From: Escherichia coli
GTDB taxonomy: Bacteria; Pseudomonadota; Gammaproteobacteria; Enterobacterales; Enterobacteriaceae
DNA: 64,000 nucleotides
Reading direction: 5' to 3' (one strand)
Assembly: GCF_003334305.1 (NCBI RefSeq)
Contig: NZ_QOWS01000017.1
Part shown: one piece after another, positions 5,089 to 36,636 of the stretch
Numbering within the stretch: the stretch's first letter is position 1
Layout: the number at the start of each line of letters is the position of its first letter
The notes under the pieces: model-generated
Seen by the model: the letters and a program-made list of their open reading frames with translations, nothing else
Database searches by the model: none
Told to the model about the DNA's origin: nothing
Translations under genes and position numbers: made by a program

Positions 5089-5300
5089 GTAACGAGAGGT
5101 TACATTCAGCTATCTGAAATGCTCTCTGTAAGAAAGTTGGTAGTAACGATATGTTACATAGACTAATTATTGAATGTAACGATATTACACATCGGTAGTA
5201 ACGATACGTTACATCGACTAATTATTGAATGTAACGATATTACACATCGGTAGTAACGATACGTTACATCGACAGATGATTGGATGTAACGAAAGGTTAC
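5089..5300. repeat. array of seven 15-bp palindromic sites GTAACGA(t/a)A(t/c)GTTAC (iteron/operator/centromere-like)
   Basis: Sites start at 5089, 5143, 5176, 5198, 5231, 5253 and 5286; spacings 54/33/22/33/22/33 bp are all near multiples of 11 bp; includes a 56-bp unit repeated in tandem. Confidence 0.8.
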
Positions 5301-29382: not shown

Positions 29383-30399
29383 TTACAGGTGCATTCAGTT
29401 TCCTTAGTAAACCGGAAGTAAATAAGATACGTAGTACATATCAATAAAGGTTAAACGAGATTAAGTTTAATTATTTTCGATTGGGCTTAAATTTATGTTT
29501 TTTTCCCGATGAGTGTCAATATGTGAACGGAAAAGGAATTCAATGGTTAAGTCAATATTTAGAAAAACTGAAAATATTGCTTTTTTGATAAGAAGAAAAA
29601 GACATTTGGTTTCATAAGGTTATTGGCAATATAACGTTCAATTCTTACTTGCATTTTATATTGGTCAGGAACTTTGCCCTGAAGTGTTAGGAATAGTCTT
29701 AATGCGCTGTGTGATGGACTAGTAAAAAAAACAAGTTTTAAGGGTAAGGGATAGAATATAAAACTATAATGAGCTGTCATTGAAGATGATTTGCCAATCA
29801 GTAAGAAATTTTAATGGATTAACATGCCGCACAAAATGGTTATAGGTGTTCATTACAATAAGTGATGGAAAATTGAACGGGCGTATGTACGTCATCTGTT
29901 CGGTAAGACCCCCAAGAGCCAGATTAAGTGAAGTTAAACGAAGGCTGCCAGCTGTCACAGGAACGATGGCCTCTTTGTCAGGGCACTGAGTGCAGTTATC
30001 TGTGCGCGTTACTCTAACTGGCACTCGAACGTCGGCGATGGGCTTACCGGTGGATCAAACTGTTCCTGTGGCGTAAACGTTTTTATGTTAGTACCAACAG
30101 ATTTACCACATTTATCATCTTAACAGTTTGAGTGAAAACGCAGGCTGCGCCGCAAAGGGAGGAGACTGAGTGGCGTGTTCAGTCTAAAAGAGGGTTGATG
30201 CCAGCATACAGGGGCGAAGCTGGTCAACAAGTCAACATTAAGATAATGGAATATTCGGAGAGAAACGTCAGGCAGTTGGCCTCAAATGAACAGGAAGAAT
30301 ATATCCCCAGGAAAATTAATGTTGGTGTTATAAACACACCAACATTAATCCGATCTGATTATTAATCAGACAAATATCGTTAATTCGTCGAATTTTGAA

Positions 30400-30540
30400 T
30401 CAACGTTTTTTCTTACGACCCTGAACGGCCTTAAAACGTGGATTAGATTTACAAATCACATACAACCGTCCTTTTCGCTTCACAATCTGACAGTCTTGAT
30501 GGCGTTCTTTTGCGGTACGCAGAGAGTTAAGAACTTTCAT
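30400..30540 (-). CDS. rpmJ2: ribosomal protein L36 paralog
   Basis: 46-aa [49 protein letters not shown] translated by hand; start overlaps the rpmE2 stop. Confidence 0.8.
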
Positions 30541-30806
30541 TACGCCCCCTTTTTCGTGCTAACAAAACGACCAAAACGTTGGGTGAACCGTGCAACATTT
30601 CCTTCTGATGCCACTGTTCTCAGCTTCCCTGTATAGAACGGGTGCGATTTCGAAGAGACATCAATTGTTACGTACGGATACGTTACGCCATCCAGCTCAA
30701 TCTCACGGTCTGTTTTGATAGTCGAGCCGATTTTAAAGTACTCATCAACACTGGTGTCGTGGAACACCACAGTACGATACTCAGGATGGATATTGGGCTT
30801 CATCAT
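30540..30806 (-). CDS. rpmE2: ribosomal protein L31 paralog (zinc-independent)
   Basis: 88 aa starting [18 protein letters not shown]. Confidence 0.85.
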
Positions 30807-30820
30807 TTTTACCTGTTATG

Positions 30821-30843
30821 TTATAACATAACCATAAAGATAC
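30821..30843. promoter_or_regulatory. Zur box upstream of rpmE2-rpmJ2
   Basis: Perfect palindrome ATGTTATAACAT at 30827-30838 within TGTTATGTTATAACATAACC, about 20 bp upstream of the rpmE2 start. Confidence 0.6.
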
Positions 30844-32382
30844 ATGCTCATCCGGATCATTTCAACACCCAATCCCTGTGACTCTTTGTGGATGTGGAAT
30901 TTTCGCAACGGGGAACTCTGGCATTGTTAGCAGCCATTGGTGACGCTCCCATAAACGCCTGGATGAGTGATTGATGATGGTTTTGCTGAGAGTATGGATT
31001 TTTCGACAATGGAGGTTATCTCCACTTTACTGGCCGATGATTTATCGCAGTATGATTGATTACCTGACAGCGTGTATTCCTCTCCCACGGATATAATAAT
31101 TACTTACAAAAAGGGAGAGGATGCATATTTTAAATATCACTGAAGTGAACAGTTTATTGCCGTTATTAATAGAAATGGAGAAATAAATAGGCGTATTCTA
31201 CAATTGCGACAAAAACAACGATATTAATCAGTTTATGACTGATTTGTTGTACTTTATTCTCTTTCATTGGTACTTCCTCGCTTTAAAAAAGAGCGCACTT
31301 CGTAAGTGCCCTTATATAAATAACGAGTTTGGTCAACCAATTTTTTGACATGTATCACAAATTTGAATAGATGTATTACATCGGCTATCTTTTATTGCAC
31401 CAACGTCATTGATATATGTCGCCTGAAGTCAGTTCCGGGAATGAGTCTGATCTCAAGACTGGCCCAGTCCGGGCGTTGATTGGCGCTGAGGAGCATATCG
31501 CATCTCATCATAATGTCGTATCTCCTGGGGTGTTATACAAGATATCGTTGTTGGTGACCTGGGAGAGGAATTGAGTTCTATTAAACCGTCAACTATGCCG
31601 GATACATACTGGATTACACTGCAGGCACGCCTTACGAGAGAACGTGCCGCAGTGACGGGTTAATTATCTGAAAGAATTTGTGAGGCTGTATCGGTTACTC
31701 ATTGATTTGATAGTTTTACTCTCGGGAGAGTAATAGATATTTAATCTATTAACGGAAACCAGCCAGTTCCTTTCGATGCCTGAATTTGATTCCATAGTTT
31801 ATCCGGAATGGTTAATTCATGAATAAGTTGTGTTCTCGTTCATGAGAAGCATAACGTAAAGGGAAAAGCTCGATTAGACGGCAGGATTTGTCAGGGGTTA
31901 TGAACGAAATTCATAAATCTGTTTGAGTGTTGCGATGGGTAGTGCAAGTTCGAAATCTCCGCAATTTACAGTCCGATGAAGGAAAATGAATATCCATAAA
32001 AAATATATCGATTTATTCTGGCGTATATACCTACTTCGACGTATTTCCAATAGTTGTTAATTAAAGGCAGGCCATTATTATTCACTCTGAATAATGAATT
32101 ATTCACTGTCCGCAGAGTAAAAAATATAACTTAGGTGTCTATTTAATGACTTGCACAAAAAGCTAAATTTTCACCCATAAATAAAAATATAATCCCGCGC
32201 CCAACCACCTGATGAGTGGCTACAGACACTGGATATATTAGGTGGCGGTGCACTTTCTTACATAAAGGTATTTCCTTTTCTGCGGAAAAGGAAATCGGGA
32301 AATCCCCGGTTTTTCTGACAAGCAGACGCCATTATTTGTGTCTGCCTATGTTCGTTAATTCGTTCATCAGGAAATTATCTCA

Positions 32383-35300
32383 ATGTCGCGTTATAAAACA
32401 GGTCATAAACAACCACGATTTCGTTATTCAGTTCTGGCCCGCTGCGTGGCGTGGGCAAATATCTCTGTTCAGGTTCTTTTTCCACTCGCTGTCACCTTTA
32501 CCCCAGTAATGGCGGCACGTGCGCAGCATGCGGTTCAGCCACGGTTGAGCATGGGAAATACTACGGTAACTGCTGATAATAACGTGGAGAAAAATGTCGC
32601 GTCGTTTGCCGCAAATGCCGGGACATTTTTAAGCAGTCAGCCAGATAGCGATGCGACACGTAACTTTATTACCGGAATGGCCACAGCTAAAGCTAACCAG
32701 GAAATACAGGAGTGGCTCGGGAAATATGGTACTGCGCGCGTCAAACTGAATGTCGATAAAGATTTCTCGCTGAAGGATTCTTCGCTGGAAATGCTTTATC
32801 CGATTTATGATACGCCAACAAATATGTTGTTCACTCAGGGAGCAATACATCGTACCGACGATCGTACTCAGTCAAATATTGGTTTTGGCTGGCGTCATTT
32901 TTCAGGAAATGACTGGATGGCGGGGGTGAACACCTTTATCGACCATGATTTATCCCGTAGTCATACCCGCATTGGTGTTGGTGCGGAATACTGGCGCGAT
33001 TATCTGAAACTGAGCGCCAATGGTTATATTCGGGCTTCTGGCTGGAAAAAATCGCCGGATATTGAGGATTATCAGGAACGCCCGGCGAATGGTTGGGATA
33101 TCCGCGCAGAGGGCTATTTACCTGCCTGGCCGCAGCTTGGCGCAAGCCTGATGTATGAACAGTATTATGGCGATGAAGTCGGGCTGTTTGGTAAAGATAA
33201 GCGCCAGAAAGACCCGCATGCTATTTCTGCCGAGGTGACCTATACGCCAGTGCCTCTTCTGACACTGAGCGCCGGGCATAAGCAGGGCAAGAGCGGTGAG
33301 AATGACACTCGCTTTGGCCTGGAAGTTAATTATCGGATTGGCGAACCTCTGGAGAAACAACTCGATACAGACAGCATTCGCGAGCGTCGAATGCTGGCAG
33401 GCAGCCGCTATGACCTGGTTGAGCGTAATAACAACATCGTTCTTGAGTACCGCAAATCTGAAGTGATCCGTATTGCTCTGCCTGAGCGTATTGAAGGTAA
33501 GGGCGGTCAGACACTTTCCCTGGGGCTTGTGGTCAGCAAAGCAACTCACGGACTGAAAAATGTGCAGTGGGAAGCGCCGTCATTACTGGCTGAAGGTGGC
33601 AAAATTACCGGTCAGGGTAGTCAGTGGCAAGTAACGCTCCCGGCTTATCGTCCAGGCAAAGACAATTATTATGCGATTTCTGCGGTTGCCTACGATAACA
33701 AAGGCAATGCCTCAAAACGCGTGCAGACAGAGGTGGTCATTACCGGAGCAGGTATGAGTGCCGATCGCACGGCGTTAACGCTTGACGGTCAGAGCCGTAT
33801 TCAAATGCTTGCTAACGGTAATGAGCAAAGACCGCTGGTGCTGTCTCTGCGCGACGCCGAGGGCCAGCCAGTCACGGGCATGAAAGATCAGATCAAGACT
33901 GAACTAACTTTCAAACCGGCTGGAAATATTGTGACTCGTACCCTGAAGGCCACTAAATCACAGGCAAAGCCAACACTGGGTGAGTTCACCGAAACTGAAG
34001 CCGGGGTGTATCAGTCTGTCTTTACTACCGGAACGCAGTCAGGTGAGGCAACGATTACTGTTAGCGTTGATGGCATGAGCAAAACCGTCACTGCAGAACT
34101 GCGGGCCACGATGATGGATGTGGCAAACTCCACCCTGAGCGCTAACGAGCCGTCAGGTGACGTGGTTGCTGATGGTCAGCAAGCCTATACGTTGACGTTG
34201 ACTGCGGTGGACTCCGAGGGTAATCCGGTGACGGGAGAAGCCAGCCGCTTGCGATTTGTTCCGCAAGACACTAATGGTGTAACCGTTGGTGCCATTTCGG
34301 AAATAAAACCAGGCGTTTACAGCGCCACGGTTTCTTCGACCCGTGCCGGAAACGTTGTTGTGCGTGCTTTCAGCGAGCAGTATCAGCTGGGCACATTACA
34401 ACAAACGCTGAAGTTTGTTGCCGGGCCGCTTGATGCAGCACATTCGTCCATCACCCTGAATCCTGATAAACCGGTGGTTGGCGGTACAGTTACGGCAATC
34501 TGGACGGCAAAAGATGCTAATGACAACCCTGTAACTGGTCTCAATCCGGATGCACCGTCATTATCGGGCGCAGCTGCTGTAGGTTCTACGGCATCAGGCT
34601 GGACGGATAATGGCGACGGGACCTGGACTGCGCAGATTTCTCTCGGCACTACGGCGGGTGAATTAGAGGTTATGCCGAAGCTAAATGGACAGGATGCGGC
34701 AGCGAATGCGGCTAAAGTAACCGTGGTGGCTGATGCGTTATCTTCAGGCCAGTCGACAGTGTCTGTAGCCGCAGATCGCGTAAAAGCAGGCGAAAGCACA
34801 ACCGTGACGCTTATTGCAAAAGATGCACATGGCAACGCTATCAGTGGTCTTTCCCTGTCGGCAAGCCTGACGGGTGCTGCGTCTGAAGGGGCGACTGTTT
34901 CTGGTTGGACCGAAAAAGGTGATGGTTCCTATGTCGCTACGCTGACAACAGGTGGAAAGACGGGTGAGCTTCTCGTCATGCCGCTATTCAACGGCCAGCC
35001 AGCAGCCACCGAAGCCGCGCAGTTGACTGTCATTGCGGGGGAGATGTCATCAGCGAACTCTACGCTTGTTGCTGACAATAAGGCTCCGACCGTCAAAACG
35101 ACGACGAAACTCACCTTCACCGTGAAGGATGCGTACGGGAACCTTGTCACCGGGCTGAAGCCAGATGCACCGCAGTTTAGTGGTGCCGCCAGCACGGGGA
35201 CAGAGCGACCTTCAACAGGAGACTGGACAGAAACAAGTAATGGGGTCTACGTGGCGACCTTGACTCTGGGATCTGCCGCGGGCCAGTTGTCTGTGATGCC

Positions 35301-36636
35301 GCGAGTGAACGGCCAAAATGCCGTTGCTCAGCCACTGGTGCTGAATGTTGCTGGTGACGCATCTAAGGCTGAGATTCGTGATATGACGGTGAAGGTTGAT
35401 AACCAGCTGGCTAATGGACAATCGACTAACCAGGTAACCCTGACCGTTGTGGACACCTATGGTAACCCGTTGCAGGGACAAAATGTGACGCTGACTCTGC
35501 CGAAAGGTGTGACCAGCAAGACGGGGAATACGGTAACAACCGATGCGGCAGGTAAAGCCGACATTGAGCTGATGTCAACGGTTGCCGGGGAACACAGCAT
35601 CACGGCCTCAGTGAATAATGCTCAGAAGACGGTTACGGTGAAATTCAAGGCGGATTTCAGTACCGGTCAGGCGAGTCTGGAGGTTGATAGCGCCGCGCCA
35701 AAAGTAGCAAACGGCAAAGATGCCTTTACGCTGACGGCGACCGTTGAGGATAAAAATGGTAACCCTGTTCCAGGGAGCCTGGTGACCTTTAATCTGCCCC
35801 GGGGTGTCAAGCCGCTTACAGGCGATAATGTCTGGGTGAAAGCCAACGATGAGGGGACAGCAGAGTTGCAGGTGGTTTCAGTGACTGCCGGAACGTATGA
35901 GATCACGGCATCGGCGGGGAATAGCCAGCCTTCGGATACGCAGACTATAACGTTTGTAGCCGATAAGGCTACCGCAACCGTCTCCGGTATTGAGGTGATT
36001 GGCAACTATGCGCTGGCGGACGGCAAAGCCAAACAAACGTATAAAGTTACGGTGACTGATGCCAATAACAATTTGGTGAAAGATAGCGACGTGACGCTGA
36101 CTGCCAGCCCGGCTTCGTTAAACCTGGAACCGAATGGCACTGCGACAACGAATGAGCAAGGGCAGGCTATTTTCACCGCTACCACTACTGTTGCGGCGAC
36201 ATACACACTCAAGGCGCAAGTGAGTCAGACCAACGGTCAGGTATCAACGAAAACTGCCGAATCTAAATTCGTTGCGGATGATAAAAACGCGGTACTCACC
36301 GCATCATCTGATATGCAATCTCTGGTGGCGGATGGGAAATCGACTGCGAAGCTGGAGGTGACACTGATGTCGGCAAACAACCCCGTTGGCGGGAATATGT
36401 GGGTCGACATTCAGACGCCGGAAGGGGTGACGGAGAAGGATTATCAGTTCCTGCCGTCGAAAAATGACCATTTCGTGAGCGGAAAAATCACGCGTAAATT
36501 TAGTACCAGCAAGCCTGGTGTCTATACGTTCACATTTAACGCCCTGACCTATGGCGGGTACGAAATGAAGCCAGTGACGGTGACCATTACCGCGGTGGAT
36601 GCCGATACGGCAAAGGACGAGGAGGCGATGAAATAA
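32383..36636 (+). CDS. fdeC: intimin/invasin-like adhesin with Ig-like repeats, apparently intact
   Basis: 1417 aa; N-terminal MSRYKTGHKQPRFRYSVLARCVAW; position between rpmE2 and ykgA where K-12 carries the disrupted eaeH. Confidence 0.8.
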   Translation: MSRYKTGHKQPRFRYSVLARCVAWANISVQVLFPLAVTFTPVMAARAQHAVQPRLSMGNTTVTADNNVEKNVASFAANAGTFLSSQPDSDATRNFITGMATAKANQEIQEWLGKYGTARVKLNVDKDFSLKDSSLEMLYPIYDTPTNMLFTQGAIHRTDDRTQSNIGFGWRHFSGNDWMAGVNTFIDHDLSRSHTRIGVGAEYWRDYLKLSANGYIRASGWKKSPDIEDYQERPANGWDIRAEGYLPAWPQLGASLMYEQYYGDEVGLFGKDKRQKDPHAISAEVTYTPVPLLTLSAGHKQGKSGENDTRFGLEVNYRIGEPLEKQLDTDSIRERRMLAGSRYDLVERNNNIVLEYRKSEVIRIALPERIEGKGGQTLSLGLVVSKATHGLKNVQWEAPSLLAEGGKITGQGSQWQVTLPAYRPGKDNYYAISAVAYDNKGNASKRVQTEVVITGAGMSADRTALTLDGQSRIQMLANGNEQRPLVLSLRDAEGQPVTGMKDQIKTELTFKPAGNIVTRTLKATKSQAKPTLGEFTETEAGVYQSVFTTGTQSGEATITVSVDGMSKTVTAELRATMMDVANSTLSANEPSGDVVADGQQAYTLTLTAVDSEGNPVTGEASRLRFVPQDTNGVTVGAISEIKPGVYSATVSSTRAGNVVVRAFSEQYQLGTLQQTLKFVAGPLDAAHSSITLNPDKPVVGGTVTAIWTAKDANDNPVTGLNPDAPSLSGAAAVGSTASGWTDNGDGTWTAQISLGTTAGELEVMPKLNGQDAAANAAKVTVVADALSSGQSTVSVAADRVKAGESTTVTLIAKDAHGNAISGLSLSASLTGAASEGATVSGWTEKGDGSYVATLTTGGKTGELLVMPLFNGQPAATEAAQLTVIAGEMSSANSTLVADNKAPTVKTTTKLTFTVKDAYGNLVTGLKPDAPQFSGAASTGTERPSTGDWTETSNGVYVATLTLGSAAGQLSVMPRVNGQNAVAQPLVLNVAGDASKAEIRDMTVKVDNQLANGQSTNQVTLTVVDTYGNPLQGQNVTLTLPKGVTSKTGNTVTTDAAGKADIELMSTVAGEHSITASVNNAQKTVTVKFKADFSTGQASLEVDSAAPKVANGKDAFTLTATVEDKNGNPVPGSLVTFNLPRGVKPLTGDNVWVKANDEGTAELQVVSVTAGTYEITASAGNSQPSDTQTITFVADKATATVSGIEVIGNYALADGKAKQTYKVTVTDANNNLVKDSDVTLTASPASLNLEPNGTATTNEQGQAIFTATTTVAATYTLKAQVSQTNGQVSTKTAESKFVADDKNAVLTASSDMQSLVADGKSTAKLEVTLMSANNPVGGNMWVDIQTPEGVTEKDYQFLPSKNDHFVSGKITRKFSTSKPGVYTFTFNALTYGGYEMKPVTVTITAVDADTAKDEEAMK

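Follow-up and report, generated by a model that had tools for sequence, protein, structure and literature searches.

The locus at positions 30400–30843 of the window (the whole stretch of Escherichia coli DNA that was analysed, 64,000 nucleotides long) raises the question of whether two small ribosomal protein genes and the palindrome that precedes them form a switch operated by zinc starvation. A preliminary description, made from the letters of the sequence, had read the genes as rpmE2 and rpmJ2, zinc-independent paralogs overlapping by one nucleotide, and the palindrome as a Zur box through which zinc starvation would induce them; its range takes in the two genes, the operator and the predicted -10 hexamer but stops short of the predicted -35 hexamer (Table 1). 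We regard it as almost certain that the locus is the E. coli ykgM–ykgO operon, encoding Zur-repressed backup ribosomal proteins and acting as a zinc-starvation switch. The identity of the genes, the loss of zinc ligands, the match of the operator to Zur recognition patterns together with its conservation, and the gene overlap were obtained in this analysis, and nothing contradicts the operon explanation. The locus and its regulation are already known, and no new biology is added here.

Both genes were assigned by comparison with family models and structures. YkgM scores 122.8 bits against the NCBIfam model of type B L31 (NF002462, curated cut-off 86) and falls below the cut-off of 70 of the generic zinc-form equivalogs NF000612 and NF001809, and YkgO scores 89.7 bits against the type B L36 model (NF002021, curated cut-off 70). 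The corresponding Pfam families, PF01197 (L31) and PF00444 (L36), match the two proteins with values of 1.2e-24 and 2.6e-18, respectively. RefSeq names the genes ykgM (type B 50S ribosomal protein L31) and ykgO (type B L36) at identical coordinates, and since rpmE2 and rpmJ2 are synonyms of these names and both proteins score above the type B cut-offs, the original naming was correct. In the E. coli ribosome structure 6i7v, chain D7, which its depositors call L31 type B, is identical to YkgM (100% over 68 residues), and chain C5 is identical to YkgO except for Q15 in place of P15. Judged by the family models and by this structure, YkgM can be taken as a real ribosome component and a member of the type B bL31 family. 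The mechanical list of open reading frames begins the proximal frame with ATGATG and gives it 88 residues (30540–30806); the true start is the second ATG, at 30803, which yields the 87-residue protein on which RefSeq, chain D7 and a cross-genus alignment agree.

The entire window aligns one-to-one with strain 2012EL-2448, where the neighbours of the locus are ecpR, ykgL, ykgR and fdeC. A 701-nt portion of the window is 100% identical in several complete E. coli genomes, and the locus was found in 5045 of 5426 complete genomes of the species. Copies of ykgMO in records filed as plasmids turned out to lie on K-12 F-prime plasmids of ~230 kb or on megabase chromosome-like records, and do not indicate that the operon is spread by plasmid.

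Table 1. Positions of the genes and of the observed and predicted control features of the ykgM–ykgO locus, in window coordinates.
Feature	Position	Strand	Basis or remark
ykgM (rpmE2)	30540..30803	-	type B (Cys-less) bL31B, 87 aa
ykgO (rpmJ2)	30400..30540	-	type B bL36B, 46 aa
TAATG junction	30538..30542	-	ykgM stop and ykgO start have base 30540 in common
Zur operator, perfect 18-bp palindrome GTTATGTTATAACATAAC	30815..30832	.	match to Zur pattern, conservation
20-bp span of the Zur-box pattern	30814-30833		
12-mer ATGTTATAACAT	30818-30829		core of the 18-bp palindrome
Predicted -35, TTGAAA	30860..30865	-	consensus scan, 17-nt spacer to -10, conservation
Predicted -10, TATCTT	30837..30842	-	consensus scan, conservation; ends 4 nt upstream of the palindrome
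Shine-Dalgarno-like AGGT	30811..30814	-	read from the sequence; 7 nt before the ATG at 30803, abuts the operator
Probable terminator hairpin	30313..30351	-	strong fold downstream of ykgO

The zinc ligands of the two proteins were located by pairwise alignment with RpmE and RpmJ reference sequences that are each 100% identical to PDB chains. YkgM contains no cysteine and carries a 12-residue insertion relative to RpmE; the four RpmE ligands C16, C18, C37 and C40 align to T, V, S and S, and the CxC...CxxC site is thereby replaced at every position. The zinc independence of YkgM, which is also backed by a published metal analysis (Hensley 2012, as cited), is firmly supported. In YkgO, RpmJ residues C11, C14, C27 and H33 correspond to His14, Cys17, Cys30 and Phe36. 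The CxxC...C...H site of bL36A is thus broken, but potential ligands persist at three of its four positions; of the relatives of YkgO, those from Pseudoalteromonas lack the histidine and those from Actinobacteria lack both cysteines. The zinc independence of YkgO, as suggested by its motif, is less firmly shown than that of YkgM, and the term 'zinc-independent', earlier applied to both paralogs, holds for YkgM with its four lost ligands and needs qualification for YkgO, which keeps three. That YkgO is not fully zinc-independent, and might weakly bind zinc or another metal through His14, Cys17 and Cys30, is considered unlikely; if true, the L36 swap would save less zinc than assumed. Residue 15, within the HxDC remnant of the zinc motif, is Gln in the window strain (window 30497) and Pro in both K-12 and 6i7v.

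Upstream of ykgM, GTTATGTTATAACATAAC is the longest perfect palindrome of the window and ends 11 nt from the ykgM ATG. Allowing one mismatch, a search of the 64-kb window still finds its core ATGTTATAACAT at this place only (0.20 expected). Palindrome length was rejected as evidence, since a perfect palindrome of this length or more (arms of at least 9 bp) turns up in 27% of windows simulated with an order-2 Markov model, a frequency that lends some weight to the view that GTTATGTTATAACATAAC is a chance AT-rich intergenic feature devoid of a regulatory role. A location so near the ykgM start and a fit to an independently derived consensus speak against this view. Two patterns given by Gilston 2014 (PMC4219657) were used for that comparison, TGWNAYRWTATAWYRTNWCA, which represents structure-based recognition by two Zur dimers in E. 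coli, and RNNNYRNNRYNNYRNNNY, an 18-bp R/Y skeleton. The operator fits TGWNAYRWTATAWYRTNWCA at 17 of 18 constrained positions, with one mismatch, and is the only window site that matches this pattern with at most two mismatches (0.19 expected per window); from the expected counts we estimate the odds of a match of this grade in the ~100 nt upstream of ykgM at ~3e-4. The skeleton RNNNYRNNRYNNYRNNNY fits the palindrome exactly; used on its own as a detector it proved non-specific, with 219 matches in the window for 255 expected, and was discarded for that purpose, which leaves the fuller IUPAC pattern TGWNAYRWTATAWYRTNWCA as the informative one. The earlier reading of ATGTTATAACAT as part of a perfect Zur-box palindrome is borne out by the fit to TGWNAYRWTATAWYRTNWCA and by the identity of the site with that of the K-12 ykgM promoter.

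The operator also stands out by its conservation. In six E. coli strains picked across the divergence range, with upstream sequence differing by up to ~6%, the -35, the -10 and the palindrome show no variation; variable sites lie before the -35 and, in the gap from the -10 to the box, at two bases. An alignment of seven Enterobacterales (Escherichia, Citrobacter, Enterobacter, an Enterobacteriaceae isolate, Hafnia and two Photorhabdus) leaves GTTAT.TATAA, the core of the box, as the sole non-coding block without variation apart from a TT in the -35 region. A TTG at the -35 equivalent is kept in other Enterobacteriaceae, and the -10 position reads TATTTT, TAGTAT or CATAAT in Citrobacter, Enterobacter and Hafnia. 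Invariance of the palindrome within E. coli between varying flanks and its conservation across genera both count against a chance feature, and the combination of a unique Zur-pattern match, a distance of 11 nt from the start of a Cys-less L31 gene and conservation across species and strains exceeds chance.

Two observations concern the sequence around the box. The gap between the -10 and the palindrome reads TTTATGG, TTTACGG or TTTGTGG depending on the lineage (equivalents of window 30833–30836 in loci L124 and L125), and its two polymorphic bases might tune Zur affinity, promoter strength or the choice of start among strains, or alter the edge of the Zur footprint. In E. coli CEA106S an IS3-family element (L126:1638-2851) lies immediately upstream of the -35, that is, just upstream of the equivalent of window 30870, and promoter, operator and genes are all intact despite the insertion.

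A survey of L31 loci blind to the operator provides an independent view of the association between Cys-less L31 and Zur boxes. Loci were retrieved from one genome per species through the back-translated N-terminus MKPNIHP, which recovers both kinds of L31 and ignores upstream DNA; sites were counted when they matched the Zur pattern with at most two mismatches within 80 nt upstream, and L36 paralogs were found by tblastn. The 98 usable loci, the window's own included, comprise 50 zinc-form genes (at least four cysteines), 42 Cys-less genes and six genes of an alphaproteobacterial Cys-less type. Among gamma- and betaproteobacteria (window excluded), 19 of 28 Cys-less genes have a Zur box, as against none of 11 zinc-form genes (Fisher p = 1.5e-4) and none of the 50 zinc-form genes of all phyla (p = 1e-11). 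The sites lie 12–36 nt before the ATG, and control segments 300 nt downstream of the Cys-less genes contain nothing better than five mismatches to the pattern. With this distribution added to the position, the consensus match and the conservation, the probability that the palindrome is a chance feature becomes negligible, and the Zur operator remains the preferred reading.

An L36 paralog lies immediately downstream of 25 of the 42 Cys-less L31 genes and of none of the 50 zinc-form ones. Taken as a whole, the survey puts numbers on the established association of Cys-less L31 with an adjacent L36 paralog and a Zur box. Cys-less loci of Bacillus and Actinobacteria show 5–10 mismatches to the gammaproteobacterial pattern. 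Cys-less genes of Firmicutes, Actinobacteria and other groups are expected to miss this pattern, since their Zur boxes differ from the gammaproteobacterial type. In Pseudomonas protegens (L051), Sutterella (L022 and L024) and Methylovorus (L038), the Cys-less L31 genes lack both a gamma-type Zur box in the 80 nt upstream and an L36 gene at a distance of up to 600 nt; such genes may sit inside longer operons for zinc starvation or be under a different control.

The preliminary description had also proposed that the two genes overlap by one nucleotide through their stop and start codons. The minus-strand junction reads GGGGGCGTAATGAAAGTT, with the ykgM TAA at 30542–30540 and the ykgO ATG at 30540–30538; both codons contain base 30540, and the overlap is exactly one base as proposed. 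The same overlap occurs in nine of the 25 Cys-less L31–L36 pairs of the survey (the window's own pair counted), with examples in Neisseria, Kingella, Vibrio, Marinobacter and Arcanobacterium, and 21 of the 25 junctions fall within -4 to +3 nt. Such tight spacing argues for selection for translational coupling, and the TAATG arrangement suggests that ykgM and ykgO are probably coupled by reinitiation. Three actinobacterial loci, from Arcanobacterium and Bowdeniella (L026, L060 and L089), combine a Cys-less L31 with an L36 paralog in which both remaining cysteines are missing (...YVINK...), and at least two of these three junctions are equally tight (-1 and -4 nt).

The locus corresponds to ykgM–ykgO of E. 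coli K-12 (L31p/L36p, b0296/b4506), whose YkgM is identical to that of the window and whose neighbours are arranged in the same way (ecpR, ykgL, ykgO, ykgM, ykgR). The window equals K-12 base for base from 30676 to 30868, a segment that holds the -35, the -10, the operator, the Shine-Dalgarno sequence and the start codon. Ten SNPs separate the two strains over 631 nt, none of them in the operator and some of them silent or flanking; one, at 30869, is located just upstream of the -35. The ykgM stop codon is TAA in the window (30541) and TGA in K-12, where the junction reads TGATG, and the one-nucleotide overlap is present in both. The K-12 operon and its Zur operator are reportedly also treated in Panina 2003, Hemm 2010 and Hensley 2012.

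Because promoter and operator are identical, experimental results obtained in K-12 transfer directly to the window; these published results cover Zur binding, repression by zinc and Zur, and incorporation into the ribosome. The L31p operator is reported to be the most palindromic of four and the one bound most tightly, with an apparent Kd of 0.025e-18 M^2, two cooperatively bound Zur dimers, protection of ~30 bp by Zur and 560-fold repression in vivo (Gilston 2014, PMC4219657). Expression of a ykgM-lacZ fusion is described as negligible in the wild type and as rising ~1000-fold upon deletion of zur or addition of the zinc chelator TPEN (Aseev 2020, PMC7297116). The comparison with the characterised ykgM Zur site, suggested earlier as a check, thus returns an identical site; the expected induction by zinc starvation is on record for this very promoter, with 560- to ~1000-fold repression by Zur, and the possibility that Zur-dependent regulation might be missing is answered in the negative by the K-12 zur and TPEN data. 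Carried over from the identical K-12 sequence, binding of zinc-loaded Zur to the window operator and zinc-dependent repression would be expected.

The same data bear on whether the palindrome might be the operator of an unrelated regulator or of another member of the Fur family, such as Fur itself. Boxes of this family are all AT-rich inverted repeats and may resemble one another, which gives the idea its plausibility. However, the 19-bp Fur consensus finds no match in the window even with three mismatches, whereas the Zur-specific pattern fits the operator with a single one; derepression by zur deletion and gel shifts, both specific to Zur, are moreover published for the identical K-12 sequence. 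An operator for Fur or another regulator is extremely improbable on these grounds, and assignment to Zur is retained.

Related systems show both the generality of this arrangement and its variation. The ykgM–rpmJ2 genes of Yersinia pestis are likewise a Zur-repressed pair of Cys-less L31 and L36 paralogs (Li et al. 2009, PMC2706843), for which the transcription start site is reported as mapped and the footprinted Zur box as lying just upstream of ykgM, overlapping the -10. The Y. pestis box has a 9-1-9 arrangement (GATGTTACATTATAACATA), in contrast to the even-centred perfect palindrome of E. coli, and the repression of 4.7-fold reported from a lacZ fusion (PMC2706843) is much weaker than in E. 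coli. More distant counterparts are also found outside the Proteobacteria. In Bacillus subtilis the Cys-less L31 ytiA (rpmEB) and, in other Firmicutes and Actinobacteria, similar paralogs are regulated by Zur, derepressed at low zinc and displace the zinc form from the ribosome. Their regulatory logic is that of E. coli, although the consensus of their Zur box is different, and the Bacillus Cys-less L31 loci of the survey, unlike that of E. coli, have no adjacent L36 paralog.

How bound Zur would silence the operon depends on the position of the promoter. The consensus scan found one sigma-70-like site on the minus strand of the region, where 2.3 are expected by chance, and was rejected as stand-alone evidence; the predicted hexamers were retained for their conservation only. 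With the box beginning 4 nt past the predicted -10, transcription would be expected to start at about its upstream edge. Published accounts of Zur and ykgM were searched for the exact L31p gel-shift duplex and for a mapping of the ykgM transcription start in E. coli, and neither was found. Centred on the palindrome, a ~30-bp Zur footprint would span roughly 30809–30838, from the end of the predicted -10 to the Shine-Dalgarno sequence, a reach that points to promoter occlusion as the mode of repression. Hexamers, start site and occlusion, like the translational coupling and the terminator, were all inferred.

The proximity of the palindrome to the Shine-Dalgarno sequence also allows another interpretation, in which it would work at the RNA level, as a hairpin within the 5' untranslated region of ykgM that steers translation or mRNA stability, and not as a DNA operator. 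The 18-nt palindrome can indeed form a 7-bp stem with a 4-nt loop directly beside the Shine-Dalgarno sequence. Its predicted fold, however, reaches -8.1 kcal/mol with a z-score of -0.55, a stability equalled or surpassed by 51 of 200 shuffled sequences, and Rfam has no family in 29900–31500 at E values up to 1. In addition, the predicted -10 would place the start inside the palindrome, so that only part of it would be transcribed, and published Zur dependence together with in vitro binding of Zur to DNA accounts for the regulation. The hairpin interpretation is very unlikely, and the palindrome is best understood as a DNA operator for Zur.

Downstream of ykgO, the 121-nt segment 30290–30410 folds with a z-score of -5.9 and contains a stem of 15–16 bp followed by UUUUCC. 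A terminator scan of the region downstream of ykgO returned no element that passed the tool's thresholds, this hairpin included; a terminator is drawn after ykgO in the scheme of Aseev et al. (PMC7297116). Judged from its fold, the hairpin is probably the ykgMO transcription terminator. It overlaps the 3' end of a convergent annotated open reading frame, ykgL (30132–30365, plus strand), which encodes the uncharacterised 'protein YkgL'; either the coding sequence of ykgL also serves as a terminator, or its reading frame is doubtful.

Zur responds to sub-femtomolar concentrations of free zinc. In the mechanism proposed here, zinc-loaded Zur would occupy the palindrome as a cooperative dimer of dimers as long as zinc suffices and, by covering the region of the -10 and the start, would keep RNA polymerase off and the operon silent. 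When zinc drops, Zur would leave the DNA and a single mRNA for ykgM and ykgO would be produced, on which ribosomes that finish ykgM would probably reinitiate on ykgO owing to the TAATG overlap, so that both proteins are made together. YkgM (bL31B) and YkgO (bL36B) would then take the places of zinc-binding bL31A and bL36A in the ribosome, a swap expected to lower the demand for zinc and which may release zinc for other uses. YkgM would in addition repress translation of the zinc-form gene rpmE; in K-12, derepressed L31p is reported to repress zinc-form L31 (rpmE) via the 5' untranslated region (Rasmussen 2022, PMC9825181). The locus is a textbook case of zinc economy, in which ribosomal proteins that bind zinc are exchanged under starvation for versions without complete zinc motifs, and it is useful as a positive control, given that genes, overlap and operator were all correctly identified from the raw sequence alone.

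Two further features of the window lie outside the operon. The inverse-autotransporter adhesin gene fdeC (eaeH; window 32383–36636) is intact and encodes 1417 residues; its K-12 counterpart is, we assume, disrupted. A direct repeat of ~55 bp, with two copies each of GTAACGATATTACACATC and GTAACGATACGTTACATC at a spacing of 55 nt, is located at about 5176–5270, within a GNAT pseudogene fragment that neighbours an IS1 insertion and lies upstream of rtcB and prfH.
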